NCBI GenBank assembly: GCA_046756925.1
Contig: JBHHXH010000002.1
Location: 2,990 to 66,989 of the forward strand
Direction of reading: 5' to 3'
DNA from: Nitrospiria bacterium
GTDB taxonomy: Bacteria; Nitrospirota; Nitrospiria; SBBL01; JAADHI01
DNA: 64,000 bases
The notes beneath the pieces are model-generated. The model was not told where the DNA came from. It saw nothing but the letters and a program-made list of their open reading frames with translations, and ran no database searches. The position numbers and the translations under genes are program-made. Of the stretch, positions 5,691 through 24,518 are shown piece by piece (position 1 is the stretch's first letter; each line of letters starts with the position of its first letter).

Positions 5691-6211
5691 TGGGAGAACA
5701 AAGCTCTCTGACGCTTTATATTGACATCTGAAAGGTGGCGTCGAGAAGAACGCGGTTGAACATCGCCTGATGGCCTGATCTGCTTTAAAAGTTTCATTAC
5801 CCAGATTTTGTAGAGCAGGAAAGCGCTCTAGTGTGTGGAGAAAAGAGATTTGTTGCGATTAGAGAAGATGGGATGATTCTGCTAAGAACGCGGGTTGGTC
5901 CGCTCATCTTCGCTGCAGCAATGATCGTTGACACAGAATGATTGAACACGCCTAAAGTTAATGAAGTTTTCAGGCTATTAAACAATCAATCCTGCGATCC
6001 AAACCACGGTCATGAGCACAGATAACCCGGTTAAAGTTGTGATCGTGGCCCATTTTTTATCTTGACCCATTCTAAACCCACCTTTCATACAAGCCATACA
6101 TGATGATACTTAAATTATAACGCAAAATAGGGTGAATGATGTTTGCTGACATACAAAAATCAGTTTTCCCGAATTGTCTTCCCTCAGCCGATAGCCCAGA
6201 GACGAGGCGCA

Positions 6212-6427
6212 TTAGAGGGACACTCTCATAGGAGAAAGGAGTCGATTTTTGTGCGTCCTTCTTGGATGAACCACCTCCTCTATGCCGAAATGATATAAAA
6301 TGGAGTGTTGTAGATTTTGAAAGGCTTCTTCTTCGTTTCGCCCCCACCTGCAACAACCCGGCATGCTGGGAATGGTCGCTTTAAAACCGCCTTCATGTCC
6401 CTCTTCAAGGATCACTTTGAATTTCAT
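6212..6427 (-). CDS. HicB-like (UPF0150) small protein, no HicA partner seen
   Basis: The N-terminus MKFKVILEEGHEGGFKATIPSMPGCCRWGRNEEEAFQNLQHSI matches the HicB/UPF0150 pattern (E-x-GG-[FY]-x-A-x-x-P-x-x-PGC...G-x-x-x-EEA). RBS AGGAGGG lies upstream of the ATG. Confidence 0.5.
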   Translation of the reverse strand: MKFKVILEEGHEGGFKATIPSMPGCCRWGRNEEEAFQNLQHSILYHFGIEEVVHPRRTHKNRLLSPMRVSL

Positions 6428-6483
6428 TTTGAAACCCTCCTAATTTAATCTAATGATGTTTTGTTACATCCTCTATATTTGGG

Positions 6484-6513
6484 ATTATATTCCCAAATAT
6501 AGGCCACCGTCAA
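6484..6513 (-). promoter_or_regulatory. Sigma70-type promoter with embedded palindromic operator (copy 1)
   Basis: The minus strand reads TTGACG (6513-6508), an 18-nt spacer, then TATAAT (6489-6484). The -10 sits at the centre of the palindrome ATATTTGGGA-ATATAA-TCCCAAATAT (6475-6500). Confidence 0.5.
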
Positions 6514-6864: not shown

Positions 6865-7935
6865 TTAATCTTGTGGAGAAGCGTGCATCGAACGTCTGAT
6901 TTGACCGCGAAATATTGAGAGCATGAGTTGGAAAGCGGCAAAAAACGTCAGGGTCGTCACACCCTCTAGGACCGAAAACCCTTGTAAGCCAGGGGCCTCT
7001 TCGATAAGCAGGCGAAGAGGTGGAATAACCATGAGATAGCGCTCTAACCAAATTCCAAAAAGAATGATCCCTAAAATGGGTTTCAAAGATCGTTCACCTT
7101 TTCGATCTAGAAGGAGCGCACCGAAGGGAACGAGAAAGAGAGCGCAGACCATTAATCCGAAAGGCCAGACGAAAGGCCCCGAAAACCGTATATAAAGCGG
7201 TTTTACTTCTTCAGGGATGTTGGCATACCATATCGTGATAAATTGAGACCATCCGAGGTAGATCCATATAATTGAAAAAACCAGCAGTAATTTCCGCATG
7301 TTTTCCCATGTCTGCGTCTGCAACAATCGATGTCGGTTTCCCTCAATCATCAACATCAGTACGGCTAGCCCGGCATAGAGATTTCCAAACCAAAAATAGG
7401 GGGCGAACAAGGTGTTGTGCCAGCCCGGCGAAAGATTCATGCCGAAATCCCAACCGATCAGGGTCTGATGCAGTACAAAGAGCGCCAACAGGCAACAGAG
7501 ACGTCCAGGACGTTGGGTCTTGTCTCTCAGGTGGCTGGATAGGGTGTAGCATGCGAAGCCGTAATATAGGATCATCGCAACAAGGTGCCTGGTAAAAAAA
7601 ACGGGCGAAGTAAACCAAAAGGAATGACTCGGTGTTCGGACCCAATGGAACAGGTCGGACTGTCCCTGAACGAGTCCGAGCATGGCCATGACCGCGATGG
7701 GCGCATAGGCAAGAGTGATCATCCCAGACGGGACCAGATAAGACGATGCCCACCGAGCCCCCAGGAGCCAAAGAAACACGACGATCGCCAAGAGGCCCTG
7801 TGTGACTCCGAACAGGTAGACAAAATTGGCTGCATAAACGCCCCAGGGAACGCCGATGAAGGCCCATGCGAGCAGTCCGCATAAGAGCAAGGCGGCGAAA
7901 ACAGTTGTTTTGGCCGAAGCCGGTTTCACCATCAC
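6865..7935 (-). CDS. actF: Alternative complex III subunit ActF-like integral membrane protein
   Basis: 356-aa polytopic membrane protein, last gene of the act operon. Its start (GTG 7935 or ATG 7932) overlaps the actDE stop. Confidence 0.7.
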   Translation of the reverse strand: MMVKPASAKTTVFAALLLCGLLAWAFIGVPWGVYAANFVYLFGVTQGLLAIVVFLWLLGARWASSYLVPSGMITLAYAPIAVMAMLGLVQGQSDLFHWVRTPSHSFWFTSPVFFTRHLVAMILYYGFACYTLSSHLRDKTQRPGRLCCLLALFVLHQTLIGWDFGMNLSPGWHNTLFAPYFWFGNLYAGLAVLMLMIEGNRHRLLQTQTWENMRKLLLVFSIIWIYLGWSQFITIWYANIPEEVKPLYIRFSGPFVWPFGLMVCALFLVPFGALLLDRKGERSLKPILGIILFGIWLERYLMVIPPLRLLIEEAPGLQGFSVLEGVTTLTFFAAFQLMLSIFRGQIRRSMHASPQD

Positions 7936-9428
7936 TCCCGGCCCAATTGGTGCTTCACAAAATTGACGATATGCCAGCGTTCGGTTGCATCGAGGGCATC
8001 TCGGTATGGCGGCATGAAATGTTTCTTGCCGCTGCCGTGTGCGTGCGCATGTCCATCTTCCCCGTCTTCTCCGTGCCCGTGGCCTTCAGCGTAGCATTCG
8101 GGGCCTTCCGAGGCATGGGCGTGTTCGTCTTCGTGCGCGTGTTCGTGTGCCTCTTCATTCTCATGCGCGTGGTCCATTGAGGCGACCTCATCATGGTCAT
8201 GCGAATCTTCGTGTTCATGTGTTATCTCGGCCGTTTCCATCGGTTCCGACTCGTCATGCGGGTGGTCATGATCGTCCTCGTGCCCATTTCGATGTTCGCC
8301 TTCCGTAGAGGCCGTCTCGTCGTGTCGATGCGTATCCGCTTCATGTTCGTCTTCGAGAGCATCCTCATGTTCGTGGTCAGCACCCTCCTCATCATGTTGA
8401 TGCTCCCTTTCATCGTCGTCGTGGGTCGCTTCATCGTCATGCGCCTCATGGGACATCTCTTCCAGCGGTGGTCGGGGACGGGCGATTTCCGAGGCGAAGT
8501 TGGCGCCATTGGTAATAGCGACAAAAATGCATCCACCGGGCTGCTCTCGAAACCCTTCTTTGGTAAAGTCGGGAAATTCTCCGATCTTCTCTGCGATGAT
8601 GCCGTCGCCTTTTCCGCTGGAGCCGTGGCAGACCACGCAAAAATCTTGGAAGAGTTTTTTTCCGATCCGGAGTGAGTCATCACTGACGGGAACCGGGTTT
8701 TCGATCCACGGCCCTTCATCCTTCGAGCGTATTTCGAGGGCCTTGCCTTGCCGGGGAACAATGGACGGCGGAAGAGACACCAGTTCTTCTTGAGGACTGC
8801 GCGTTGTCTGATCGACCATGTCTTGAGACCAGGGCCAGGCGAGAACGAGAGAAGGCCATAAGAGCAGCATCGCGGCGCCGAGCCACAAACGAGCGATTTG
8901 TTTTTCAACACGATCGGCGCCGCAGCGTTTTAATAGCGTTGCGGCCGATGAGAGCTCGCTCGAAGTTCCCCGGACGCCGATGGCGAAGCGGTCGCTGCTG
9001 ACGCGCTGCGGGACGAAGCGTTTTCGGTCGGAGGAGAGCAGAGCGAAATAGAGAAAGCCTAAAACGGTGGACAGCAGCGAGAAGAGCACCATGATCTCGA
9101 ACGAGATGATGCCGATGGCGGGTAGGGATAAAATCGGCATCCCACCGGTTTGAATGGGATAGAGCACGGCGGTGCCTCCGCTCAGGAGAAGCCCTGCGGT
9201 CAAGCCGACAATTGCCCCAAACAAAGTAAATTTACCGATGGGACTATTTCCTTGGGAGACGGGGAGTCCCAATTCACCGGGGTCCATTGGAGAATAAAGG
9301 GTAATGTCTTCATGCCCCGACGCGGCGAGTGCCTGTAACGCCGCTCGTGTTTCCGCGGGAGAGGGAAAGGTTCCGAGAATGCCGTGATCGCGGGTAGTTT
9401 GATTCGTATTTTTCTTGTCGTTCATCAT
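7932..9428 (-). CDS. actDE: Fused ActD (DUF3341)-ActE (monoheme cytochrome c) subunit with a His/Asp/Glu-rich insertion
   Basis: Start ATGATG at 9428 overlaps the actC stop and follows AAGGAGG; I rejected the 147-aa upstream part of ORF 7932..9869 because it overlaps actC. The N-terminal part is GILGTFPSPAETRAALQAL plus 2 TM helices (ActD-like). The C-terminal part has CVVCH and ...ITNG...MPPYRDALDATERWHIVNFV (cytochrome c). Confidence 0.75.
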   Translation of the reverse strand: MMNDKKNTNQTTRDHGILGTFPSPAETRAALQALAASGHEDITLYSPMDPGELGLPVSQGNSPIGKFTLFGAIVGLTAGLLLSGGTAVLYPIQTGGMPILSLPAIGIISFEIMVLFSLLSTVLGFLYFALLSSDRKRFVPQRVSSDRFAIGVRGTSSELSSAATLLKRCGADRVEKQIARLWLGAAMLLLWPSLVLAWPWSQDMVDQTTRSPQEELVSLPPSIVPRQGKALEIRSKDEGPWIENPVPVSDDSLRIGKKLFQDFCVVCHGSSGKGDGIIAEKIGEFPDFTKEGFREQPGGCIFVAITNGANFASEIARPRPPLEEMSHEAHDDEATHDDDEREHQHDEEGADHEHEDALEDEHEADTHRHDETASTEGEHRNGHEDDHDHPHDESEPMETAEITHEHEDSHDHDEVASMDHAHENEEAHEHAHEDEHAHASEGPECYAEGHGHGEDGEDGHAHAHGSGKKHFMPPYRDALDATERWHIVNFVKHQLGRE

Positions 9429-10771
9429 GCCTCCTTTTGCTGCAAGGGGAGCATCTCTTTGATTTCGTACATGGAAACCGAAGGAAAAAGTTTCGTAAAG
9501 ATCAAAAAGTTCAAGCTGAAGAGTGCCAGCGTGCCGATTAATATGGTGGCTTCGACGGCGGACATGCTGTATGAACCCCAGGTGAATGCGGCATCGGGAG
9601 CCGATAGGCTGGGGATGAGGATGAGATAACGCTCGAACCAGAGCCCAACATTGATCAAGATCGTGATGATCAAAAGCTTCCGCGGCGAGCGGCGTATTGT
9701 CTTCGAGATGAGAAAGAGCGGGAGCAATCCGATCGAGAAGATCATCAACCAGAACATCCAGGCGAAGCGGCCGCTGATCTTCGATTGCATGACGGACAAT
9801 TCGACTACATCTTCCGTCTGCCAAAGGACGAAGGTTTCGACAAACATCATATAGTTCCAGAGGAGGCAAAGGACAAAAAGAAAAATCGCTAGTTTTTCGA
9901 GGTGCTCGACCCGGATATAGGCCTCGAAGCGATAGTACTTCCGAATGAGCACCGAAATGGTGATCACGGCCGAGACACCCGAGTAAATAGCGCCCAGGAC
10001 AAAGGCCGGCGCAAAAATGGTGCTGTGAAGTCCGTGGACATTCGAGACGGCAAAATCCCAGGAGACAATGCTATGGACGGACACCATCAGGGGGATGAGA
10101 AAAGAGGCCATTAAAACGTAGGCCCGTCGGAGATGCTGCCACTGTGCCGTCTCCCCCTTCCATCCGAACGACAGGCAGGTATAGAGTTGCTTCCGCCAGC
10201 CTTGCGTGTGGTCCCGCGCCGTCGCCAGATCGGGGATCATCCCGAGAAACAGAAACAAAGCGCTCCCGATCAAATAGGTGTTGATCGCGATGCTGTCCCA
10301 GGTGAGCGGCGAACGCATATTGGGCCACAGCTCCCGTTGGTTGGGATAGGGCGGAAACATCCAGTAGAAATACCAGCCGCGTCCGAGGTGGATCAAGGGG
10401 AGCAGGCCGGCGTTGACGAGAGAAAAGAGGGTCATGACCTCCGCGCTTCGGTAGATCGGTTTTCGCCATTCGCTGTGTGTGAGGTGGAGTACCGCGGAAA
10501 GCAAGGTGCCGGCATGACTCAAACCGATCCAGAAAATGAAAGTGGCGATATACCCGCCCCAAAAGACGGGGTTGTTCAAACCGGTGACCCCAAGACCCGA
10601 ACGCACCTGATACGCATAAGCCGCCACGGCGGAGATGACCACGAGAACCAGGCCCGCAACCAGCATCCAATAGCGCGCCGAGGTATGGGTCAGGCTTCGG
10701 ATGACGGCCTGATCGAGCTTCGCGCAAGCCGCCATTCCGGATGTTCGATCGGTGGTCTCCGGTGCTTCCAT
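9425..10771 (-). CDS. actC: Alternative complex III quinol-interacting membrane subunit ActC (NrfD/PsrC family)
   Basis: 448-aa polytopic protein of NrfD-like appearance, placed directly after the Mo-pterin-like/FeS subunit. Tight spacing on both sides. Confidence 0.85.
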   Translation of the reverse strand: MEAPETTDRTSGMAACAKLDQAVIRSLTHTSARYWMLVAGLVLVVISAVAAYAYQVRSGLGVTGLNNPVFWGGYIATFIFWIGLSHAGTLLSAVLHLTHSEWRKPIYRSAEVMTLFSLVNAGLLPLIHLGRGWYFYWMFPPYPNQRELWPNMRSPLTWDSIAINTYLIGSALFLFLGMIPDLATARDHTQGWRKQLYTCLSFGWKGETAQWQHLRRAYVLMASFLIPLMVSVHSIVSWDFAVSNVHGLHSTIFAPAFVLGAIYSGVSAVITISVLIRKYYRFEAYIRVEHLEKLAIFLFVLCLLWNYMMFVETFVLWQTEDVVELSVMQSKISGRFAWMFWLMIFSIGLLPLFLISKTIRRSPRKLLIITILINVGLWFERYLILIPSLSAPDAAFTWGSYSMSAVEATILIGTLALFSLNFLIFTKLFPSVSMYEIKEMLPLQQKEA

Positions 10772-10772
10772 T

Positions 10773-13700
10773 TTATGTATCGATGATCCGTTTCAAATAA
10801 ATCACCGCCGATTCGGTGTTGAGGTGTTCCAAGGCGCGGTAACGCCTTGGATCGCGCGCGGCCTTCGAAACCGCACTTTGATGATCCAGCAATGAGCCGA
10901 AGTGCATGGCGTCGGCCGGACAGGCCTGCACACAGGCGGGCTGAATTTCACCGTCTTTTACTTTCCTGTTTTCCAGCTTTGCGTCTTCCTTGCCCTTGCG
11001 AATGCGTTGCACGCAGAAGGTGCATTTTTCCATCACCCCGGCATCCCTGACCGAGATTTCCGGGCTTAATTGGCGATCGAGCGGCGTCGGCCATTCGGGT
11101 TGGACCCAATTAAAGTTCCGGACCTTGTAAGGACAGTTGACGGCGCAATAGCGTGTCCCGACGCAACGATTGTAGACTTGGGCATTGAGCCCATCCGGGG
11201 TATGGTAAGTGGCGTAGACGGGACAAACCGGTTCACAGGGAGCGTTGCCGCAGTGTTGGCAAAGCATGGGGAGAAAGCGTGCGCTTGGTGTCGGATCGGG
11301 CTGCCATGTCCGCTGTATTTGAATCCAGTCCATGCTCCGTTGGTTTCGGATGCCCGCTTCCCCCACGATCGGTATATTGTTTTCGGCATGACAGGCGACA
11401 TTGCAGGCTCCGCAACCGGTGCAGCGGTCCAGATCGATCACCATGCCCCAGCGGTAGTCCTCCGGGCCGTTGTGTCGCTCGGGTTGGAGATATTTTGCCA
11501 ATAGGCCGCTCAGCCCAGGCAGGGCGATGCCTTCACGGTTGGGTAGGGCTTCGATCGGCTGAAGGGAGGTCCCTTTTTTTAAGCGCTCCGCCTCGGCCGC
11601 GTCGAGCGTGAGGCTCATGTCATGACCGCCTTGATCGCTTGCGCCTTCCGTTTTTGCGAATGTGGTCTTCCGTCCTGTTTTTTTAATCGATACGCGCGAA
11701 GCCGCCCAAGCAAGGGTCCCGGTGGCCGCCTCGATCAGCGGTGATACGACCTTCAGCGGATTGACCCCTCTCCCGGTTGCATATCGTCCATAGGCCGTAT
11801 GTCCTTGTCCGATGGGCATGGCAAGGGTATCGGCTCGAATGCCGGGCCTTGGATAGGCCGGTGCTTCCAAGGAGCCTTCAGGGGTCTCGATCTGAAGAAG
11901 ATCGCCTTCTTGAATCCCGAGCCGACGGGCGACGCTGGAATGGATCTCCACCCAGCTGCCCCATGTAATCGTCGTCATCGGATCGGGCGCCTCCTGAAGC
12001 CAGGGCTGGTTGGCGCCGCGTCCGTCGTGGAGGGTGATCGATGGATAGAGTTGGAGGTGAAAGGAGTCTTTATGGGGTTCGGCGTTCCGGCTTTTTCCTT
12101 GAATGATATTGTTAATAAGTTTCAAATCGGTGTTTTTTAAAACCATGGCATTGCTGGGTTTTTCGTCCCATCGCCCACCATTTTTTAATAGCGTTGTCCA
12201 AAAGGGTCGGAAGTCGATACCGAAATCCAAACGTTCCTCCAAACCGGAAACGAAAAACCGCTCTTCCCAGGCTTCTTTTAAAAAGGATTCGAAATTGTCC
12301 CAGGGAAAACGTTCGGAAACCCTCCCTCCAAGCCCTTCGGCAAGCGAAATGAACACATCCCCCAAGGGACGTGTATCGTACAAGGGAGGCACGACGGGCT
12401 GCATGAGGCCGACAGTCCGGTGTCCGGACGCCACCTCGGGGATGTAGTCTCCAAAGGATTCAAGCGGGGTATGGAGCGGGAAGATGAGATCGGCCATGCG
12501 GTTGGTTTCATCGATGAATGAAGCAAAACCCACGATAAAAGGTAGTTTTTCGAGATCGGGCTGGAGTTCCAGCGAGGCGGGCGCATGGTAGAGGAGGTTT
12601 GCATCATGTAAAAAAAGGGCCTGAATCTTTCCTTCCTGAATCTCTTGCCCGAGGCCCATTATTCGTTTCCAATCGAGGCGCTTTTCCCCAAAGGTTTCGT
12701 AGGGCGTATAAAATCGGATGCCCCCTTTGCGATTCGTATTTCCAACGACGGTGTTGAGTATATTGATCGCAACGGCATGAAAGAGGCCGTCCGGACGCGC
12801 CATCGCCGCATCGCCGCATAGGGCGAGGCTTACGGGCGCCGTCGCGAATTCCTTCGCCAATGCGCCGATGACTTCCTGAGGAATATCGCAGCGCTGAGAG
12901 ACGGTCTCGATGCTATATTCGTTAAGAAGCCCGCGCCATGCCTTCGCGTCCTGAAGGCCCAATCGTTCGGCGTGCCATCCTTCGTTGAGGATGATCCGGG
13001 AGAGACCCAAGGCCAGGACGCCCTCACTGCCCGGACGGAGGGCAATCCAGCGATCGGCATTGGCGCCGGTGAGGGAAAGACGGGGCTCGCATTGAACGAA
13101 TTTCCCGCGGCGGGGTCTGGCCGGCGCTTGGCGAAAATCGCCGTAGGCTTTGCTGTAGCCGACTGGAGAGAGCCATCGCTCTAAGAAATTGGCCCCGAAA
13201 GAAAGCAGGTAATCCGTATGGGCGATATCATAGTGCGGCAGGGATTCGACCCCAAAGACAAGCTTGTTGGCGGATTTCAATACCGCGTAATCCAAAAATT
13301 CGTAAGTATAAACATGCGGGCTGCCGTAACCTGCCATGAAATTCGAGACCAGTTTGCTCAGATGCCCCCTGATCGGGCTGCCGATCAGAAAAAGGCGGTC
13401 CGTCATCTGGGCGTCTTGAAGCTTCTTCAGTTCTTTTACGACGATCCGCGTTGCCTGCTCCCATGAAATTTCTTCCCATTGGTCCGCTCCGCGAGGCCCC
13501 ACCCGTTTCAAGGGCCTTTTGACGCGATCCGGATTATAGAGCACCTGCAGGGACGCTTCCCCCATGGCGCAAAGCTTTCCTTGGTTGATGGGAGAAAGGG
13601 GATTTCCCTCAATCTTTTTGGCATGTCCATCCAGCATTCTCACGGAAATCCCGCAGCCGGAAGGGCATTGTCGGCAAACACTGGAATACCAGGTTGCCAT

Positions 13701-13826
13701 GCCGGGTGCGATATCGTCGGGCGGCACGACAAAAGGGATCAGGTGCGCTACGGGCGGCTCGACTTGGTTGCATGCCCCTAAGACGCCAGTGGTTCCGATG
13801 AGTTTTAAAAAGTTTCGACGGTCCAT
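10773..13826 (-). CDS. actB: Alternative complex III subunit ActB (molybdopterin-oxidoreductase-like domain fused to 4Fe-4S ferredoxin domain)
   Basis: Start taken at MDRRNFLKLIG (twin-arginine signal) at 13826. It has an N-terminal CRQCPSGCG cluster motif, and the C-terminal third has multiple CxxCxxCxxxCP ferredoxin motifs (CTGCGACNVAC, CQHCGNAPCEPVCP, CVGTRYCAVNCP, CTFC...CVQACP). Confidence 0.85.
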   Translation of the reverse strand: MDRRNFLKLIGTTGVLGACNQVEPPVAHLIPFVVPPDDIAPGMATWYSSVCRQCPSGCGISVRMLDGHAKKIEGNPLSPINQGKLCAMGEASLQVLYNPDRVKRPLKRVGPRGADQWEEISWEQATRIVVKELKKLQDAQMTDRLFLIGSPIRGHLSKLVSNFMAGYGSPHVYTYEFLDYAVLKSANKLVFGVESLPHYDIAHTDYLLSFGANFLERWLSPVGYSKAYGDFRQAPARPRRGKFVQCEPRLSLTGANADRWIALRPGSEGVLALGLSRIILNEGWHAERLGLQDAKAWRGLLNEYSIETVSQRCDIPQEVIGALAKEFATAPVSLALCGDAAMARPDGLFHAVAINILNTVVGNTNRKGGIRFYTPYETFGEKRLDWKRIMGLGQEIQEGKIQALFLHDANLLYHAPASLELQPDLEKLPFIVGFASFIDETNRMADLIFPLHTPLESFGDYIPEVASGHRTVGLMQPVVPPLYDTRPLGDVFISLAEGLGGRVSERFPWDNFESFLKEAWEERFFVSGLEERLDFGIDFRPFWTTLLKNGGRWDEKPSNAMVLKNTDLKLINNIIQGKSRNAEPHKDSFHLQLYPSITLHDGRGANQPWLQEAPDPMTTITWGSWVEIHSSVARRLGIQEGDLLQIETPEGSLEAPAYPRPGIRADTLAMPIGQGHTAYGRYATGRGVNPLKVVSPLIEAATGTLAWAASRVSIKKTGRKTTFAKTEGASDQGGHDMSLTLDAAEAERLKKGTSLQPIEALPNREGIALPGLSGLLAKYLQPERHNGPEDYRWGMVIDLDRCTGCGACNVACHAENNIPIVGEAGIRNQRSMDWIQIQRTWQPDPTPSARFLPMLCQHCGNAPCEPVCPVYATYHTPDGLNAQVYNRCVGTRYCAVNCPYKVRNFNWVQPEWPTPLDRQLSPEISVRDAGVMEKCTFCVQRIRKGKEDAKLENRKVKDGEIQPACVQACPADAMHFGSLLDHQSAVSKAARDPRRYRALEHLNTESAVIYLKRIIDT

Positions 13827-13854
13827 TCGGTTTTTATCTCTGTGAAACGAAGAT

Positions 13855-14376
13855 TCATTTGTGGCACACCCAGCAATCGATGGAAGCATCCATCTTTCGA
13901 TGGCATTTGAGACACCAGCCCATTTCCAGTGAGCTGACCTGTTTCACCTGCTCCATCTCGGATACATCGCCATGGCATTGTTCGCAAGCCAGATCGGCAT
14001 TGAGATGCATGCGATGTGAAAAATAGACGAAATCCGGAAGGTTGTAGACTTTTTTCCAGGGAATGGGTTGGCGATTATCCCAGTAATCGAGCAATTTTTG
14101 GACTTCAGGGTGGTCCAGGGCGATCATTTCATGACAGCCGATGCATTTTTGTACGCTCGGTACCCCCGCAACGGAAGACTTCTTCGCATAAATATGACAA
14201 TAAAGACAGGCGATTTCACTTTCTTGGGCATGAGTTTTATGACTGAAATCGATCGGCTGCAGGGGTGAGGATCGGGTCGAAAAGAAAAATGCATAGGCGA
14301 GTGCTGCGCTGAGGGTGATGACTAAGGTCGGAATAAAAAGCGAGAGCAATCGGGGAGAGATCTTTGTTTTCCGCAA
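13855..14376 (-). CDS. actA: Alternative complex III pentaheme cytochrome c subunit ActA
   Basis: 173 aa with an N-terminal TM anchor. Five CxxCH motifs: CLYCH, CIGCH, CEQCH, CLKCH, CWVCH. TTG start at 14376 with AGGGA upstream. Confidence 0.85.
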   Translation of the reverse strand: MRKTKISPRLLSLFIPTLVITLSAALAYAFFFSTRSSPLQPIDFSHKTHAQESEIACLYCHIYAKKSSVAGVPSVQKCIGCHEMIALDHPEVQKLLDYWDNRQPIPWKKVYNLPDFVYFSHRMHLNADLACEQCHGDVSEMEQVKQVSSLEMGWCLKCHRKMDASIDCWVCHK

Positions 14377-15773: not shown

Positions 15774-15825
15774 TTGACAGGGGGAAGACATCCTTGTATA
15801 TTTATATCCGACCAAAATAATCGGA
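15774..15825 (+). promoter_or_regulatory. isc operon promoter plus candidate IscR operator
   Basis: TTGACA (15774-15779), a 17-nt spacer, then TATATT (15797-15802). This is followed by the inverted repeat TCCGA-N9-TCGGA (15807-15825), 27 nt before the iscR ATG. Confidence 0.5.
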
Positions 15826-15851
15826 GACTTAAAAGGTCGCCTATACCTCTG

Positions 15852-16283
15852 ATGTTAAAACTGACAAAAAAGACGGATTATGCCTTAATGGCCATCAACT
15901 ATATGTCCTATCGAAAAGATTCCTTTGTCGCCAATACGCGGAATATTTCGGAAGCGTATAACATTCCCTTGGAATTACTTGCCAAGATACTGCAGAAGCT
16001 GGCAAAAAAAGGCATGATCGTCAGCCAAAACGGACCAAAGGGTGGTTACAGCCTGGCGAAAGATCCAAGTCTGATCACCTTGGGCGAAGTGATTCAGATC
16101 ATCGAAGGGCCTATACAGATTGTTCGTTGTGTTGAAGGAGACACCACATGCTCCCAAACGGAACAGTGTACGATTCGAAGCCCACTCCGAAGGATTGAAC
16201 AAAAAATTGTGTCATATTTACACAGCATCACCATTGACAAGTTTTGCCAAGAGGCAATAGAAGATGAAATCGCCGTCAACTGA
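15852..16283 (+). CDS. iscR: Rrf2-family Fe-S cluster regulator IscR
   Basis: Start at MLKLTKKTDYALMAINYM (typical Rrf2 N-terminus). Three clustered Cys (CVEGDTTCSQTEQC) could ligate a cluster. First gene of the isc operon. Confidence 0.8.
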   Translation: MLKLTKKTDYALMAINYMSYRKDSFVANTRNISEAYNIPLELLAKILQKLAKKGMIVSQNGPKGGYSLAKDPSLITLGEVIQIIEGPIQIVRCVEGDTTCSQTEQCTIRSPLRRIEQKIVSYLHSITIDKFCQEAIEDEIAVN

Positions 16284-16310
16284 CGGAACGAAACCAAGGT
16301 AGGAAATAAT

Positions 16311-17528
16311 ATGCTCAAACTTCCAATATTTATGGATAATCATTCAACGACGCCGGTCGACCCTCGGGTCTTAGAGGCCATGCTTCCCTATTTCTCCGAA
16401 AAATTCGGAAATGCGGCCAGCCGTAACCATTCTTTTGGGTGGGAGGGGGAAAAGGCGGTTGCCTATGCCCGCGAACAAATCGCTCAACTGGTCCACTGTC
16501 ATCCAAAGGAAATTATTTTTACGAGCGGCGCGACGGAATCCGACAACCTGGCCTTAAAAGGTGTGGCCGAGATGTACCGAGAAAAAGGAAGTCATATTAT
16601 TACGGTCGTTACGGAACATAAGGCCGTTCTCGATGCAGCGAAGCACTTAGAAAAAGAAGGCGCAAAGGTGACCTATCTACCGGTTGACCGGGATGGCTTG
16701 ATCGACCCTCAATCCGTCAAGGCGTCCATTACCGACAAAACGATCCTAATCTCTATCATGCTGGCCAATAACGAAATCGGGGTGATCCAGCCCATTGCGG
16801 AGATCGGACAAATTGCAAAGGAAGAGGGTATTTTGCTGCATTGCGACGCCACGCAGGGGGTGGGAAAAATTCCTGTCAATGTTGAAACGATGGGAATCGA
16901 CCTGATGTCATTCTCGGCGCATAAGATATACGGACCCAAAGGCGTCGGCGGGCTCTATGTCCGAAAAAAGAATCCTAGGGTGCGATTGGCGCCCATGTTC
17001 GACGGCGGTGGCCATGAGCGCGGCATGCGTTCCGGAACGCTCAATGTACCCGGTATCGTCGGTCTTGGCACGGCCTGCGAAATCTGTGAAAAAGAAATGG
17101 CCGAAGAATCGATTCGCGCGACCCGCTTGCGCTTGAAACTCCGGGATCATATATTAAAAGAGCTGGATGAGGTTTACGTGAACGGCCATCGGGAAAATCG
17201 TCTCCCGCAGAATTTGAATATGAGCTTTGCGTATGTTGAGGGGGAATCGTTGTTGATGGGGCTGAATGAAATCGCGCTCTCTTCCGGCTCGGCTTGTACC
17301 ACCGCGACCTTGGAACCCTCTTATGTTCTGCGTGCATTGGGCGTTGGAAGCGATCTGGCGCATTCTTCCATCCGATTCGGTCTCGGAAGGTTTAACACCG
17401 AGGAAGAAGTTGATTATGTCGGCAAAAAAATTGTGGAAACGGTGAAAAGGCTTCGGGAGATGTCGCCCCTTTATGAAATGGCAAAAGAAGGTATCGATCT
17501 CAAGAGTGTCCAGTGGACACAACATTAA
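16311..17528 (+). CDS. iscS: Cysteine desulfurase IscS
   Basis: PLP-lysine motif [11 protein letters not shown] and active-site loop SSGSACTT. 405 aa. Confidence 0.9.
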
Positions 17529-17539
17529 GGAGGTAGTCA

Positions 17540-17923
17540 ATGTCGTACAGCAATAAGGTGATCGATCATTACAACAATCCTCGAAATGTCGGGAGCCTCG
17601 ACAAGCAAGATAAGGAAGTCGGGACCGGCGTCGTCGGCGCACCGGAGTGTGGGGATGTGATGAAGCTCCAATTGAAGATTTCCGAAGGGGTCATCGAGGA
17701 CGCCCGCTTTAAAACCTTCGGTTGTGGCAGCGCCATCGCAAGTTCCAGCCTGGCGACGGAGTGGGTGAAAGGAAAGACAATCGATGAGGCATTTAAAATT
17801 AAGAACACGGAAATCGTGAATGAGTTAAATCTGCCTCCCGTAAAGATTCACTGTTCGGTCTTGGCGGAGGATGCGATCAAAGCCGCGATTGCGGATTACA
17901 AGAAAAAGAATGGAGAAGGATAA
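17540..17923 (+). CDS. iscU: Fe-S cluster scaffold IscU
   Basis: Three conserved Cys contexts (GAPECGDVMKL, FGCGSAIASSS, KIHCSVLAEDA) and the LPPVK Hsc-binding motif. Confidence 0.92.
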   Translation: MSYSNKVIDHYNNPRNVGSLDKQDKEVGTGVVGAPECGDVMKLQLKISEGVIEDARFKTFGCGSAIASSSLATEWVKGKTIDEAFKIKNTEIVNELNLPPVKIHCSVLAEDAIKAAIADYKKKNGEG

Positions 17924-17926
17924 AGA

Positions 17927-18286
17927 GTGGGGCAGATGGAAACAAATATCGGCAATGCGCAAACGGTTCGTTTGACATCCGCGGCGGTTGAAGCCGTAAA
18001 GGGGATGATTGTGAGAAAAAAATTAGGGAACGTGGCTTTGAGGTTGGGCGTCGAAGGAGGCGGTTGTTCGGGCCTGACCTATCAACTTAAATTCGATACC
18101 GAGGTGAGTCCACATGACGAAAGCTATGAGTTCGAAGGGCTGCGGGTGCTGGTCGACAAAAAAAGCCTGCTCTACTTAACGGGCATTACCCTCGATTTCA
18201 GCAAGGACTTGGTTGGAGGCGGTTTTAAGTTTATCAATCCGAACGCCAAGCAGAGCTGTGGTTGTGGAGAATCGTTCTCCGCCTGA
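17927..18286 (+). CDS. iscA: A-type Fe-S carrier IscA
   Basis: HesB/IscA family, with C-terminal CGCGESF and an upstream GGGCSG motif. The start is ambiguous (GTG 17927 or ATG 17936). Confidence 0.85.
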   Translation: MGQMETNIGNAQTVRLTSAAVEAVKGMIVRKKLGNVALRLGVEGGGCSGLTYQLKFDTEVSPHDESYEFEGLRVLVDKKSLLYLTGITLDFSKDLVGGGFKFINPNAKQSCGCGESFSA

Positions 18287-18293
18287 GGCTGCC

Positions 18294-19031
18294 ATGAATG
18301 TGATTCCTGAAAAAACAGGCCCCGAGAGGGGCCGTTCTTTTTTGGACCAGCAACCCCAAAACCGCCCGTGCTGGAGTTGTGAATACAAATCGGACGATCT
18401 CTATAATTGTTCTCAGTGCGACAAACTGCAGGAATTTCTTGAGGAGACGGATTACTTCAACTGGTTTGGTTTCGGCTATTTTCTTTCGATCGATCAAGAC
18501 GCCCTGGAAAAACAGTACCACCTCCTAAGCCGGAAATTTCATCCGGACTTTCACCAAAAAACATCACCGGAGGAACAAGCCATCAGCCTTGAAAATACCG
18601 CGCATTTAACCAAGGCCTATCGCATCTTAAAGGACCGCAAAAAAAGAATGGCATACTTGATCGAATTACTTGTAGGCGCGCAGGCGCCGCCGACAAACGT
18701 GGCGGACGATCTTTTTGAAGAAATATTGGAGATTCAAGAACGGATGGAAGCCATGCAAGAGATGGATCGATCTCAAAATGACCGCAAAGAGGCGCTGCTG
18801 TCGTCCTTAAAGATCGATCTGGAAAACATGGAAAGCCACCGGAAGGAAATAGAAGAAAGCCTGCAGTCCCTGTCATTAAAATGGGACTGCTTGGAAGAAA
18901 AGAGGGGAGCAGGGCCTTTAGGAGATTCGCAAATACTATATTTGCAAGAAATAAAAACCTTGCTGGCCAAAGACACCTATCTCGATCGTATCATCCAGGA
19001 AATACGCAGATCGATCGAAGGAGGATCTTAA
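18294..19031 (+). CDS. hscB: Co-chaperone HscB with N-terminal tetracysteine module
   Basis: ATG at 18294, just after the iscA stop. J-domain HPD (KFHPDFH). N-terminal CWSC-x10-CSQC. I rejected the ORF-track start at 18213 because it overlaps iscA. Confidence 0.8.
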   Translation: MNVIPEKTGPERGRSFLDQQPQNRPCWSCEYKSDDLYNCSQCDKLQEFLEETDYFNWFGFGYFLSIDQDALEKQYHLLSRKFHPDFHQKTSPEEQAISLENTAHLTKAYRILKDRKKRMAYLIELLVGAQAPPTNVADDLFEEILEIQERMEAMQEMDRSQNDRKEALLSSLKIDLENMESHRKEIEESLQSLSLKWDCLEEKRGAGPLGDSQILYLQEIKTLLAKDTYLDRIIQEIRRSIEGGS

Positions 19032-20864
19032 ATGTCTTATGTGATCGGAATAGACCTCGGGACAACCAACAGTCTGGTTGCCGTTATGGATGGAGACACC
19101 CCCCGTGTCATTAAAGATCGCTTCGGAAAGACCTCTCTCCCATCGGTTGTCTATATTCCCTCATCGGGCGCCCCTCCAGTTGTCGTCGGAGATCCGGCCA
19201 AGAAACATCTGGTGACGGATTCGGATCGGACAATATATTCCATTAAACGGTTTATGGGGAAAGGCCGGGACGAAATTCAAGAAGATACGAAAAGAATCCC
19301 TTACAAATTGCTTGGCGATTCAAATGAATCCGTCCGCATTCAAGTGGGCGAACGGCTGTATACCCCTCCGGAAATTTCGGCGTTTATTCTTCGTGAGTTG
19401 AAGGAACGGGCCGAAGCCGACCTGAAAGAATCGGTGTCTCAAGCAGTGATCACGGTGCCCGCTTATTTTAACGACAGTCAAAGACAGGCGACAAAAGATG
19501 CGGGAAAGATCTCTGGGCTTGAAGTGCTTCGCATATTGAATGAACCCACAGCCGCATCCCTGGCCTATGGCCTACAAAAATCCAAAGAAGGGATCATCGC
19601 GGTATATGATCTCGGCGGCGGGACATTCGATATTTCAATCTTAAAAATCAAAGAGGGCATATTTGAAGTCCTTGCCACCAATGGCGATACGCATTTAGGC
19701 GGCGATGATTTTGATCAACGAATCGTGACCCTATTCTGCGAAGAGATTCGCCGAGAATATAAGATCGATCTTTTTGAATATCCTGAAGTGTTACAGGACA
19801 TTCGTCTGAAGGCCGAGCAAGCGAAGTCATTGCTCTCTACACAGGCCTCTTACGAGATTGAGATGGTGCTACCGATGAAAAAGGGAACCTACCGGCGTGA
19901 AATGACCAAAAAAGAATTCGAGGAAAACATTCAAGATTTGGTGGACCGTACGACCGATCCATGCCGCATGGCGCTTGTCGATGCGGGCTTGAAACCGGCG
20001 GATGTGAATGAAGTCGTACTGGTCGGAGGATCGACGCGTATCCCTTATATCCAGGAAACGGTGGCCAAGCTCTTTCATAAAACGCCTCACAGCGAACTCG
20101 ATCCGGAGAAGGTCGTCGCCTTGGGGGCGGCGATTCAAGCCAATATTCTCTCCGGGGGCATTACCAATCTGCTGCTTTTGGACGTCACCCCATTATCGCT
20201 TGGCATTGAAACCATGGGGGGGGTCGTGGGCCGCTTGATTCCGAGGAATACAACCATCCCGACCAGCGGGAAGGAAACCTTTTCAACCTTTGTAGATGGT
20301 CAGCAATCTGTATCCATTCATGTCGTGCAGGGAGAAAGAGAACTGGTGGCCGATTGCCGCAGCTTGGCAAAATTTAATCTGACCGGAATCGATCCCATGC
20401 CGGCGGGCATGCCTCGGATTGAGGTCACGTTTTTAATCGATGCAAACGGGATACTGAATGTGAAGGCCACAGACCTTCGGAGCGGCAAAGCGCAATCCAT
20501 CGAAGTGAAGCCGACCTACGGCCTCACGGAGACGGAAACCGAGGCAATGATCTCGGATTCGATGGAACATGCAAAAGAAGACATGGAAAAGCGCTTATTG
20601 ATCGAGCTAAAAAATGAAGCCGAAACCGTGATCAGACACACGGAAAAGGGGCTTTCGCAAGGATCGGACCTGATGGACAAGACCGAACGGAAAATGATCG
20701 AGTCGTCTCTTTACGATTTAAAGATCGCCCTTGCGAAAAATGACCGGAATATGATTCGCGAAATACTCAATCGTCTCGATGAAGTCACGCTTCCGCTCGC
20801 GGAAAAATTGATGAACCGCACCGTGAAAGAAGCGCTTCAAGATAAAGAGCTGACCGATCTTTAG
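19032..20864 (+). CDS. hscA: Fe-S cluster chaperone HscA (Hsp70 family)
   Basis: [23 protein letters not shown], 610 aa, directly downstream of hscB. Confidence 0.92.
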
Positions 20865-20885
20865 AAACCTGTCCGGAAAGCCGAC

Positions 20886-21218
20886 ATGCCGAAGATTACA
20901 TTCCTAAAGGATGATCCGAACCGAAATATCACCATAGAATGCAAAACAGGGGAGACCATTCTCGATATTGCGCTTAAGAACGATATCGAGTTGGAACACA
21001 ATTGCGGCGGCAGTTGCGCCTGCACCACCTGCCATGTGATCGTTCGGGGAGGGTTGGACCATCTTTCCGATATGGAAGAAGACGAAGAAGATCGTCTGGA
21101 TACGGCCGAAGGGCTTACCCTCACCTCACGGCTCGGATGTCAGGCGGTCGTCGAGGGGGATTGTGTCGTCGAAATCCCAAAAAACGTGCAACCCTTCCGG
21201 AAGGCGGAACAACACTAA
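20886..21218 (+). CDS. fdx: [2Fe-2S] ferredoxin Fdx (adrenodoxin type)
   Basis: CGGSCACTTCH plus the downstream SRLGCQ Cys. 110 aa, in the isc context. Confidence 0.9.
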   Translation: MPKITFLKDDPNRNITIECKTGETILDIALKNDIELEHNCGGSCACTTCHVIVRGGLDHLSDMEEDEEDRLDTAEGLTLTSRLGCQAVVEGDCVVEIPKNVQPFRKAEQH

Positions 21219-21233
21219 GGAGTTTGAATAAAG

Positions 21234-21449
21234 ATGGATTTAAATTGGCACAGTATTGAAGACATCGGTGTGTTGTTGTTGGAAAATTATCCCGAAACGG
21301 ATCCCCTCAGCGTTCGATTTACTGACTTGCACAAAATGGTCACCGGTCTTTCCGGATTTTATGACGATCCCAAAAAATCGAACGAAGCAATTCTTGAAGC
21401 CATTCAAATGGCTTGGTATGAGGAATACAAAGACGCTCAAGACGAATAA
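21234..21449 (+). CDS. iscX: Fe-S assembly protein IscX
   Basis: 71 aa. WHSIEDIG...YPETDPLSVRFTDLHKMV...DDPKKSNEAILEAIQMAW parallels E. coli IscX (YfhJ). Confidence 0.8.
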   Translation: MDLNWHSIEDIGVLLLENYPETDPLSVRFTDLHKMVTGLSGFYDDPKKSNEAILEAIQMAWYEEYKDAQDE

Positions 21450-21687: not shown

Positions 21688-22059
21688 GTGAAGATTTCAC
21701 AACGACTGTTTGAAAGCCAGCGACAATATAAACGAAAAAAAACGTTGAATGCCGTACGCTGGGATCACCGCGAAGGTGAAAACGTAGATGGAAAGATCCA
21801 CGATATTTCTCCGGCGGGCATCTTTTTGGCGCCGCTGGGGAAAATGCCGAAGGACATCCATCCGGAAGATCCGATATGGCTTGTCTTGCGTATCAACAAC
21901 AAAGATTATTTCCTTTCCGCCACGGTCCGTTGGCGGGGAGTGAGCAAGGAACATGGCGAATTCGGGTTTGGCCTTGAATTTGCCGACAATAGCAAGCGAC
22001 TTGCTGAAGATCTGTGTCTTAAAATGGCCGAAAGCGGCCTATTCTTCGTTCCCGCCTAA
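21688..22059 (+). CDS. PilZ domain protein
   Basis: RQYKRKK (RxxxR-like) followed by DISPAGIF (D/NxSxxG), the bipartite c-di-GMP-binding PilZ signature. GTG start. Confidence 0.65.
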   Translation: MKISQRLFESQRQYKRKKTLNAVRWDHREGENVDGKIHDISPAGIFLAPLGKMPKDIHPEDPIWLVLRINNKDYFLSATVRWRGVSKEHGEFGFGLEFADNSKRLAEDLCLKMAESGLFFVPA

Positions 22060-22298: not shown

Positions 22299-22336
22299 TT
22301 GACAACAGTAAAATTTGGGAATATAATCCCAAATAT
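22299..22336 (+). promoter_or_regulatory. Consensus sigma70 promoter with embedded palindromic operator (copy 2)
   Basis: TTGACA (22299-22304), a 17-nt spacer, then TATAAT (22322-22327). The -10 lies in the middle of ATTTGGGA-ATATAA-TCCCAAAT. The 24-nt core 22313-22336 is identical to 6475-6498 on the opposite strand. Confidence 0.55.
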
Positions 22337-22358: not shown

Positions 22359-23324
22359 TTGAAGACCACAAAAAAAATAAACATCCAATTTTTACTGGTA
22401 ATCGCCATGATAGTCACAATTCTCCTATGTCCTCGCTGGCGTAAAAAAGCCCATGCCAGCCATGAACAAATCGATATCGCCTCTTTTTGGGGAGAAATAG
22501 AAACCGGTTTTCTCTACGACGATAATATTTTTCAAGTAAAGGATGGAAAGGAATCGGATATGATTTGGGAGTCCAACCTATCCTTGTCCTATCTTCCGAA
22601 GGAGATCAAATGGAGCGCCCGAGCAATATTTGATCGATATCGAAAAAACAACGAGTTGAATTATGTCTACTATGAAGTCGGTATGGAACGCCCATTTGGT
22701 CAGAGAAATTATGGAAGTGTCGTCCTTCATCTGTCTCCTTCCGCCTTGCTCGACAAGCAAGATCCGAATAGAGAACCCTTCTCGTTAGAATCTTACGGGT
22801 TCAGCGCCACGGTCGACCGGAACACCGATCGAATAGGCAATATTGGCATAAACTTTTCTTACACGCGATTGGATTACGGGGCTCCTTTTAATGCAAAAGA
22901 TACGAATATATTAAGCCTCAGTCCGTCTCTTTTTTATCGGATGGGAGACTACTGGCGTTTTTTGGCCGAGGTAACCTACGAAAAGGGAGACGCGCAGGGA
23001 GGATTTATCTTGACCGATATTCCGGATGACATCTCCTATACAGCGCTCGCGGCTTCCTTCAAGATTGTTTATCAGGTCAGGGAAAATACACGGTTGCGGT
23101 TTCGCTACAAGATTCGCAAAAAACGATTTAGCACGGAAGGGGCCGATGCTTTTCATAAGGATAGGAACGATGCCAACCATGCTTTGTATGCCGAGATACA
23201 ATACAATCCGGTCGAAAAGGTAAGCGTTTTTAGCCGCATAGACCGCTTGTGGCGGAATTCAAACCTTGATTTTGTCGCTTTTAACGAGACACGGTGGATG
23301 CTGTCCGTGGCATATCGGTTCTAA
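22359..23324 (+). CDS. Outer-membrane beta-barrel protein (family uncertain, possibly BBP2/OmpL-like)
   Basis: TTG start with GAGGGAG RBS. Signal peptide ending AHA. Alternating amphipathic strands, and a C-terminal ...LSVAYRF with terminal Phe typical of BAM substrates. Confidence 0.6.
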   Translation: MKTTKKINIQFLLVIAMIVTILLCPRWRKKAHASHEQIDIASFWGEIETGFLYDDNIFQVKDGKESDMIWESNLSLSYLPKEIKWSARAIFDRYRKNNELNYVYYEVGMERPFGQRNYGSVVLHLSPSALLDKQDPNREPFSLESYGFSATVDRNTDRIGNIGINFSYTRLDYGAPFNAKDTNILSLSPSLFYRMGDYWRFLAEVTYEKGDAQGGFILTDIPDDISYTALAASFKIVYQVRENTRLRFRYKIRKKRFSTEGADAFHKDRNDANHALYAEIQYNPVEKVSVFSRIDRLWRNSNLDFVAFNETRWMLSVAYRF

Positions 23325-23515
23325 TTGATTATATGGCATCGATGCATTTGGAATTGTTAAACGAGATGCCCACTGCCCAGTTAGAAATAAGAAAACGTGA
23401 GAGGAGGCGCCGTATCCTCATCAATATCGAAAATAACAGCGGCGAAAGAACGAAGATCAACTGAAATGTTTCGGTTGAGGTTAAACAACTTTTTTATTAT
23501 TTGGAGGGTCAAAAA

Positions 23516-24118
23516 ATGGACGCAAGAAAATATAGACGGATATTAATCGGAGGAATTGCATTTTCTTTCTTGTTCGCGTTGGTGTCCCATGCGGCCGGCC
23601 TTGACGACCGTGTCACAGGCGTGAAACTGCGTGGCGACGGCACCGTCGATGATGCGCCGGGAAGACATATCCAAGACGATGATATTGGTCCGGATGGACT
23701 CAAGCGCCGGGGGGATGGATCGATCGACGATACCCAACCCAATCGACCTGGCGGGATGAATGACGTAAAGCGCCGTGGCGACGGCACCATCGATGACCAT
23801 TCACGGGACCGGCATCGTGATGGGGATGACCACGCCAGAATGAGAGAGGACGATCGTAACGACAGGTCCCATCGAGGCAGAGGACGCGGACGCGGTCGTG
23901 GCCGAGGACGTGGGCGCGGGGGCGATCACGATGTAAGAGTTTCCATGGAGGAGCATCGGGGACGAGGCCGTGATCATGACCGTATGGAAGATCGTGTCGC
24001 CGCCCGGAGGGACGACCACCGGGGTCGCGGCCGGGACGATCACCGGACCCGCGAAAGAGACGACGACCGGAATCGCGGACGAGATGACGACCGAGGCCGT
24101 GGAAGAGACGATAACTAA
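23516..24118 (+). CDS. Secreted low-complexity Arg/Asp/Gly-rich repeat protein
   Basis: ATG at 23516 after GGAGGG. Signal peptide ILIGGIAFSFLFALVSHAAG. Three repeats [KR][LR]RGDG[TS][VI]DD, then a run of RG dipeptides (HRGRGRGRGRGRGRGG) and an RD/RG-rich tail to the stop. Confidence 0.6.
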   Translation: MDARKYRRILIGGIAFSFLFALVSHAAGLDDRVTGVKLRGDGTVDDAPGRHIQDDDIGPDGLKRRGDGSIDDTQPNRPGGMNDVKRRGDGTIDDHSRDRHRDGDDHARMREDDRNDRSHRGRGRGRGRGRGRGRGGDHDVRVSMEEHRGRGRDHDRMEDRVAARRDDHRGRGRDDHRTRERDDDRNRGRDDDRGRGRDDN

Positions 24119-24240: not shown

Positions 24241-24518
24241 GGGAGTCTCAAAAATTATTTCCTAAAACGATTATGGATGCTTTGCGAAAAGGATTTCACG
24301 GATAGACAACAGAATCGGTTGAGCATGTGTGTTGCCTACCGATTCATATTCATGTTGAGAAGGCAAGATTATTGCGAAACGATTCGAATGTAGGTTATAT
24401 AAAAAGTAGAGTGTTTTTTTACGCAAGAGGATCGATAAATGCCGTCATCGAGGCTCAGGTAATCAATAGGCATATTGGAGCTTCCGAATTTTATCGTGCG
24501 AGGAAAGGAGGTATTGTC

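Follow-up and report, generated by a model that had tools for sequence, protein, structure and literature searches.

A palindromic operator over the −10 box points to DUF6502 proteins as probable autoregulated repressors of envelope-protein promoters

Results

Two promoters of the window share one palindrome

The window, that is, the whole 64-kb stretch of Nitrospiria DNA analyzed here, contains two copies of a 24-mer, ATTTGGGAATATAATCCCAAATAT, each in front of a gene. Sequence matching, a promoter scan and a repeat search placed copy 1 at 6498-6475 on the minus strand, upstream of a 71-aa HicB-like ORF (6212..6427, minus strand), and copy 2 at 22313-22336 on the plus strand, upstream of a gene for an outer-membrane β-barrel (22359..23324, plus strand). 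The barrel gene is followed by an ORF for a 205-aa secreted protein rich in Asp, Arg and His (23501..24118, plus strand).

In both copies, the arms TTTGGGA and TCCCAAA (6497-6478, minus strand; 22314-22333, plus strand) form perfect inverted repeats around a 6-bp spacer, AATATA, which is itself asymmetric. The palindrome of copy 1 reaches out to CTATATTTGGGA...TCCCAAATATAG. Spacer bases 2-6 and the first T of the right arm make up a TATAAT hexamer (6489-6484, minus strand; 22322-22327, plus strand) that is oriented toward the downstream gene at both sites. The promoter scan joined the first of these −10 boxes to TTGACG at 6508..6513, 18 nt upstream (11/12 consensus match over 6513-6484, minus strand), and the second to TTGACA at 22299..22304, 17 nt upstream (12/12 over 22299-22327, plus strand). 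Transcription is predicted to start about 7 nt past the hexamer, near 6477 for copy 1 and near 22334 for copy 2, and leaders of 25-50 nt precede the downstream genes. An earlier note on this DNA had described the identical 24-mers, the perfect TTTGGGA-N6-TCCCAAA repeat around TATAAT and the correctly spaced −35 elements; all three descriptions hold.

The arm pattern has exactly two matches in the 64-kb window, also with two mismatches permitted, and both score 14/14 arm positions. In a window-wide repeat search, the 24-mer pair was the sole long-range repeat of at least 18 nt with 100% identity, while the remaining pairs were chance-level matches of 72-94% or repeats within genes. The flanks of the two copies diverge within a few bases of the 24-mer, and the window ORFs adjacent to either copy include no transposase. 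The earlier note had regarded a dispersed or mobile repeat in non-promoter contexts as an observation that would speak against shared regulation. What we find instead are two copies with unrelated flanks, and the sites in other genomes described below stand at gene starts with a −35 element.

Two other identities of the element were considered and rejected. An RNA element is contradicted by the absence of Rfam matches in the window and by the predicted transcription start, which lies downstream of most of the palindrome, so that a hairpin would be absent from the transcript. As for a terminator, the stem is flagged as terminator-like on the opposite strand, where it has only three G-C pairs and no upstream gene.

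Several other features of the window were recorded. A minus-strand cluster at 6865-14376, ending just upstream of copy 1, comprises large ORFs (1038, 448, 645 and 356 aa) and resembles an alternative-complex-III-type oxidoreductase, as judged by gene size and order only; the 356-aa ORF has no Pfam match, and the ORF at 7932-9869 carries a long His/Asp/Glu-rich tail with HDHDH and EHEHED runs. On the plus strand, the order and size of the ORFs and the sequence motifs seen in them make 15774-21449 a probable isc operon (an Rrf2/IscR-like regulator, then apparent IscS, IscU, IscA, HscB, HscA, ferredoxin and IscX), of which the regulator is the sole Pfam-confirmed member. A Pfam-confirmed PilZ-domain gene (21688-22059) lies just upstream of copy 2. 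An OmpA-family gene (24327-25658) contains a 180-nt tandem duplication with 87% identity in its coiled-coil part (24698-25053), and a gene at 62159-63166 carries seven repeats of about 126 nt (62308-63154) that look like WD40 by period and conserved motif only.

The genes behind the two copies and their counterparts elsewhere

The HicB-like ORF has a 50-nt leader and a GGAGGG ribosome-binding site. Its Pfam match, HicB_lk_antitox (E 1.6e-4, under the curated cutoff), covers residues 4-47 and thereby the N-domain only. A word-based homologue search with the protein returned nothing but itself, and an exhaustive search found 399 remote relatives, themselves HicB_lk_antitox or UPF0150 proteins; it also matches the genuine HicB of locus L004 (E 1e-5). 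The relatives end in a transmembrane helix and not in a C-terminal RHH/HTH domain. In the same frame as the HicB-like ORF, a 39-aa ORF with a transmembrane helix (DKKWATITTLTGLSVLMTVVWIAGLIV; 6097-5978, minus strand) corresponds to the C-terminal membrane anchor of the single-protein relatives P0128 (105 aa) and P0130 (106 aa). Read as one frame, 5975-6427 (minus strand) begins with the 71-aa ORF and closes with the 39-aa ORF, the two being separated by 33 codons with a stop on either side. Since P0128 and P0130 are single fused proteins, about 45 extra codons seem to split or disrupt the window gene, unless it represents two genes.

A HicB-like gene with a palindromic promoter calls to mind the operators of HicAB toxin-antitoxin systems, which often overlap the −10 box. 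That the element serves HicB autoregulation, or is part of a mobile or dispersed repeat, is nevertheless scarcely credible. The protein has the N-terminal HicB fold only and lacks a DNA-binding domain, as the earlier note had also concluded. No HicA-like ORF is adjacent, the HicA of L004, searched by tblastn, had its best match in the window far from the site (E 0.14), and the window copies, two in 64 kb, have no transposase beside them. The same site, moreover, serves unrelated genes encoding the barrel, DUF6502 and DUF5666 proteins. HicB autoregulation was therefore rejected.

The barrel protein scores exactly at the curated cutoff of Pfam BBP2_2 and has a weak EpsL-like C-terminus; with the weak HicB_lk_antitox match, these assignments agree with the earlier view that the two promoters drive a HicB-like gene and an outer-membrane barrel. 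Only four homologues of the barrel were found among 5.8 billion proteins, and the one with a source name is from Nitrospiria. Three non-identical orthologues (55, 49 and 47% identity; loci L004, L006 and L007) all have TTGACA, 17 nt and the palindrome directly upstream. The site reads ATTTGGGATTATAATCCCAAAT, as part of a perfect 32-bp palindrome, in L004, is the 24-mer identical to that of the window in L006, and reads AAATGGGAATATATTCCCAAAT in L007. Upstream of the barrel gene, each of the four genomes has a different neighbor (PilZ in the window, elsewhere a protein without Pfam domain, an M48 peptidase and LptG). As the palindrome is kept despite these differing neighbors, the element travels with the barrel gene under strong selection. 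Copy 1 has a counterpart in L043, a Nitrospirota MAG. There, the 20-mer and its tatagag flank recur unchanged in front of MSIKVILENKRELGFKA..., with which P0128 begins; P0128 and the window HicB-like protein share 51% identity. Judged by sequence, both window promoters thus have conserved counterparts elsewhere.

The 205-aa secreted protein downstream of the barrel, delineated by ORF calling and clustering, contains three KRRGDG[ST]IDD repeats, after which come RGRGRG and runs rich in Asp and His, and has no Pfam or NCBIfam match. Its family (cluster 23) is present in loci L003-L006 and L008 (L004 copy at 11131-11721), and its gene is probably co-transcribed with the barrel gene.

The palindrome marks DUF6502 genes in many phyla

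To survey the motif across bacteria, one genome per species (185,579 species genomes, 596 Gb) was scanned for TTTGGGA-W6-TCCCAAA. This forward set, picked on the W6 spacer (non-A/T spacers occur only in the reverse set below), comprises at least 119 loci in Gamma- and Deltaproteobacteria, Myxococcota, Planctomycetota, Nitrospirota and other groups. By our own estimate, chance would yield a few tens of sites in the complete genome collection. About 40 of the listed loci share a TTGACA-like −35 element 16-18 nt upstream of the central −10 box and an ATG 1-3 nt past the right arm, which opens a protein of 270-290 aa. This protein, with the conserved N-terminus ..LRPLVRILLRNGVPYGTFADLAKRVYVDVA..GRKQT.SRVSVITGLSRKEV.., is Pfam DUF6502 (PF20112; E 1e-95).

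Among the matches listed, HMM searches detected a DUF6502 gene within the locus of up to 8 kb in 46 of 119 loci (~40%), and clustering of all ORFs detected a DUF5666 gene in 49 of 119. The latter encodes a lipoprotein of about 480 aa made of DUF5666 repeats and is the single further conserved neighbor among the listed loci; it mostly lies immediately downstream of DUF6502 and at times has its own palindrome promoter. In the same clustering, no other regulator was conserved beside the motif across phyla. Culturable bacteria with a motif match include Thiothrix, Haliea, Marinobacter and Proteus terrae, and a DUF6502 gene is also present in the loci from Thiothrix lacustris and Haliea alexandrii.

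This distribution bears on a regulator encoded between the two window copies. The earlier note had seen no candidate adjacent to either copy, which is correct in that none adjoins them, but incomplete in that the window encodes the Rrf2/IscR-like regulator at 15774-16283, a gene without a link to the motif. It is the only recognizable dimeric repressor gene between the copies, and the isc operon ends about 0.9 kb before copy 2. Binding of the palindrome by this protein is still very improbable: in other phyla the motif is found with DUF6502 and not with an Rrf2 gene, and the Rrf2 gene of the window does not have the motif in front of it. To our knowledge, the published type 1 and type 2 motifs of IscR are also unlike TTTGGGA-N6-TCCCAAA. 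Owing to the missing association across phyla, IscR/Rrf2 was rejected as the binder.

Tandem operators occur at five loci (L199 628-680, L201 3111-3165, L050 1621-1670, L069 1115-1165 and L090 123-170), where the consensus palindrome is followed 5-10 nt on by a weaker GGGAA-N-TCCCA site; those of L050, L069, L199 and L201 lie upstream of the DUF5666 lipoprotein gene. This arrangement suggests, from the sequence, cooperative binding at some promoters.

DUF6502 genes selected by protein similarity carry the operator

In the reverse direction, 80 DUF6502 loci from JGI metagenomes were selected by protein similarity alone. In each, the 150 nt in front of the DUF6502 start were searched for the site agreeing with most of the 14 arm positions. 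The score was 14/14 in 39 loci, 13/14 in 25, 12/14 in 6 and lower in 10. A palindrome match of at least 12/14 thus lies just upstream of 70 of the 80 genes. Among the ten low scorers, three are without upstream DNA, one retains TGGGA-N6-TCCCA as a core, two follow a DUF5666 gene that has tandem palindromes, and four have no site (4 of about 77 genes with adequate upstream DNA). Across the 462 kb of the reverse loci, 63 of the 66 sites with a score of at least 13/14 stand at DUF6502 starts.

The 63 distinct own-promoter sites gave the consensus cTTGACa..aaaATTTGGGAATATAaTCCCAAATAtg, which contains the window 24-mer. Both window copies would therefore be identical because each represents the family-wide consensus, and not through recent duplication. 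Every one of the 63 sites has GGG and CCC, in contrast to the variable spacer, where TATAAT, TATGGT, CATCAT and TAAAAT occur. In 48 of the 63 sites an ATG or GTG follows 0-3 nt past the palindrome, from which the DUF6502 mRNA is predicted to be usually leaderless; a subgroup of DUF6502 genes has leaders of 45-85 nt.

The constant company of a strong sigma-70 promoter and the often leaderless start would also be compatible with arms that are an intrinsic promoter feature, acting in leaderless start selection or through DNA shape or a cruciform, with no dedicated repressor; the terminator-like flag on the opposite strand could be read in the same sense. We regard this as quite improbable. Conservation is far higher in the arms than in the −10 box, which makes a purely structural promoter feature unlikely, and sigma-70 recognition needs no dyad symmetry. 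The element is furthermore limited to one small gene set per genome, and the window leaders of 25-50 nt show that it is not tied to leaderless starts.

A more serious alternative is that the palindrome is the operator of a different transcription factor, with DUF6502-DUF5666 merely its most conserved target operon. Some palindrome sites have no DUF6502 gene within the locus of up to 8 kb, other loci carry the same arms without DUF6502, and DNA binding by DUF6502 is a prediction from models; co-occurrence and structure prediction cannot fully separate a regulator from the most conserved target of another one. Against this stand the site at the DUF6502 start in about 90% of family members from many phyla, a classic signature of autoregulation, and the HTH and winged-helix elements of the DUF6502 models described below. 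No other regulator is a conserved neighbor across phyla; the histidine kinase/sigma-54 pair noted below was seen in Nitrospiria loci only. We therefore consider a different factor unlikely and favor DUF6502 itself as the binder.

A second set of loci (L016, L049, L060, L065, L072, L077, L080, L091, L101, L105 and L128), from Steroidobacteraceae and other proteobacteria, was noted separately. Most of them carry a palindrome of about 30 bp close to GCAAATTTGGGAAAWTTTTCCCAAATTTGC between divergent genes, one of which starts MRISDDRYSRDRLRLDLALRF...TGLTDDRIRKLYRTYL and has no Pfam match; there is no DUF6502 gene nearby and no −10 box in the spacer. The half-site is thus not exclusive to the DUF6502 family, and this set may belong to a different regulator that uses the same half-site.

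DUF6502 in the lineage of the window

Searches of the 64-kb window by tblastn with 25 DUF6502 proteins and with DUF5666 proteins detected neither family. Both are present in close relatives. The MAG GCA_046756825.1 has the palindrome both at its barrel orthologue (L007) and at a DUF6502-DUF5666 pair (L129); at the pair, TTGACA-17-TATAAT lies inside TTTTTGGGAATATAATCCCAATT and is directly followed by the ATG start codon. One shared metagenome contains both L132, with DUF6502, and L004, with a barrel orthologue; the window, L004 and L132 have a GC content of 0.52 and tetranucleotide correlations of r 0.95-0.96. L129 (1-4302) and L132 (2664-10978, gene order read from ORFs and NCBIfam matches) share the order histidine kinase, sigma-54-dependent response regulator, DUF6502, DUF5666. 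The histidine kinase/response regulator pair was found beside DUF6502 in Nitrospiria loci only.

In L132, two MurG/PssE-like glycosyltransferase genes come next, while the L129 contig ends within the DUF5666 gene; a similar glycosyltransferase gene with its own palindrome promoter occurs in L047 (Planctomycetota). We claim no link to PEP-CTERM/exosortase systems, as the NCBIfam matches to EpsL, PrsK and PrsR were all far below cutoff.

Structure models of DUF6502 and the comparison with HetR

DUF6502 (PF20112) proteins have about 275 aa, with more than 6,000 matches at E ≤ 1e-20. The family has no NCBIfam model and no mention of it was found in our literature search, in which DUF5666 appeared only in omics tables. 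We modeled two members, P0029 and P0054, as AF2 monomers from overlapping alignments of 64 and 108 sequences (pLDDT 77 and 78). In both models, five helices form the N-terminal domain, whose HTH spans residues 58-76; a winged helix occupies the center (residues 125-161), and the C-terminal part has long helices. The HTH is built around a near-invariant SR..ITGLSRKE, with S59, R60, G66, R69 and E71 invariant in both alignments.

A Foldseek search against one structural library, the PDB, returned HetR as the top match for both models over about 312 columns, that is, the full length. The E-values are marginal (4J00_A 4.5e-4 and 3QOD_A 0.011 for the first model, 3QOD_A 0.044 for the second), the TM-scores are about 0.3, and the next matches are partial IclR/MarR winged-helix domains, likewise of DNA-binding proteins. 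At the sequence level, no relationship is detectable: searching the PDB sequences with a DUF6502 profile gave no match at E ≤ 10, hhalign against the HetR sequence gave a probability of 0.2 and no signal, and the HetR Pfam models did not match DUF6502, which is matched by PF20112 only. We hence treat the relationship as a lead and not as a finding.

HetR (PDB 3QOD, 4J00, 4YRV), the master regulator of heterocyst differentiation in cyanobacteria, has 299 aa against about 275 for DUF6502. It is an autoregulated dimer with an N-terminal helical HTH domain that reads a palindrome of GGG...CCC triplets, features to which the modeled DUF6502 may be likened. HetR mainly activates, from upstream sites, whereas the position of the DUF6502-type site on the −10 box has the geometry of a repressor site. 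HetR has been described as a novel transcription factor whose flap and hood folds are likewise novel; it recognizes GGG-N5-CCC, with Glu71, Lys73 and Arg62 contacting bases (PMC4649674). The DUF6502-type site, GGG-N8-CCC, follows the same triplet logic with another spacing, and the predicted DUF6502 recognition helix (..GLSRKE..) holds an invariant Glu, where Glu71 of HetR contacts C bases. DUF6502 is found outside the cyanobacteria and has no known PatS-like inhibitor. The RGxG and RGDG[ST] motifs of the 205-aa secreted protein loosely recall the HetR-inhibiting RGSGR peptides; by this speculative analogy, a peptide feedback of the PatS kind might be suspected from the RGDG repeats of this barrel partner.

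Discussion

We propose, with a probability of roughly 70%, that DUF6502 acts as a dimeric, autoregulated repressor by occluding the −10 box, and that both window promoters belong to its envelope-protein regulon. Each 24-bp element would be a near-consensus sigma-70 promoter with a built-in operator, whose inverted repeat flanks and partly contains the −10 hexamer. A DUF6502 dimer, encoded outside the 64-kb window, would recognize this operator. Because the arms bracket the −10 box and reach the predicted start, the bound dimer should cover both and exclude RNA polymerase until some signal releases it. The outcome would be negative autoregulation together with co-repression of the DUF5666, barrel and HicB-like genes; the direction, repression, we infer from the position of the operator only. 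A single dimeric repressor encoded elsewhere and serving both promoters is what the earlier note had proposed, and the conserved footprint and the association with DUF6502 lend this support.

In Nitrospiria, the putative regulon appears to extend to the BBP2_2 barrel with its secreted repeat protein and to the small HicB-like gene. Its predicted members are largely envelope-associated: the lipoprotein, the barrel, secreted repeat proteins, a glycosyltransferase-like gene and the HicB-like protein, which is membrane-anchored in its relatives. The HicAB-like appearance of copy 1 ends at the promoter, as the window has no HicA partner, its HicB-like protein has no DNA-binding domain and the operator also serves unrelated genes.

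The proposed arrangement is analogous to the LexA/SOS box and to operators of TetR-family and phage 434/P22-type repressors, in which a dimer binds a 20-26-bp inverted repeat over the core promoter. As with classical autorepressors, the regulator's own gene is the best-conserved target, and a small dispersed regulon shares one consensus. In contrast to them, DUF6502 is an unrelated and uncharacterized family, the −10 box lies within the operator spacer in a strikingly constant geometry, and the mRNA of the regulator is usually predicted to be leaderless. The CRP/FNR-type site is TGTGA-N6-TCACA; TGGGA-N6-TCCCA has what we take to be the same 5-6-5 architecture as the CRP core, with one position per half-site differing. 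Unlike in that system, no CRP/FNR-family gene is associated with the motif.

More tentatively, DUF6502 could be a remote non-cyanobacterial relative of HetR: a three-domain, dimeric, GGG/CCC-reading protein, autoregulated from a leaderless promoter-operator and controlling envelope proteins in many phyla. We think this doubtful, though worth stating. It would cover Nitrospirota, Proteobacteria, Myxococcota, Planctomycetota and other phyla, with DUF5666, the BBP2-type barrel and secreted repeat proteins as its targets. The literature found reports no HetR fold outside cyanobacteria. If true, the HetR fold would be a specialized offshoot of an old and widespread regulator family, and the link, if real, would bear on the origin of HetR.

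Leaving HetR aside, the reading of DUF6502 as a repressor would give a DUF with thousands of members a concrete role, that of an autoregulated DNA-binding repressor with a 20-26-bp operator and a recognizable regulon. Its fixed geometry, in which the operator contains the −10 box and is followed at 1-3 nt by a leaderless start, would constitute a compact and reusable regulatory module, and the conservation of the operator would let regulons be read from sequence in uncultured phyla.
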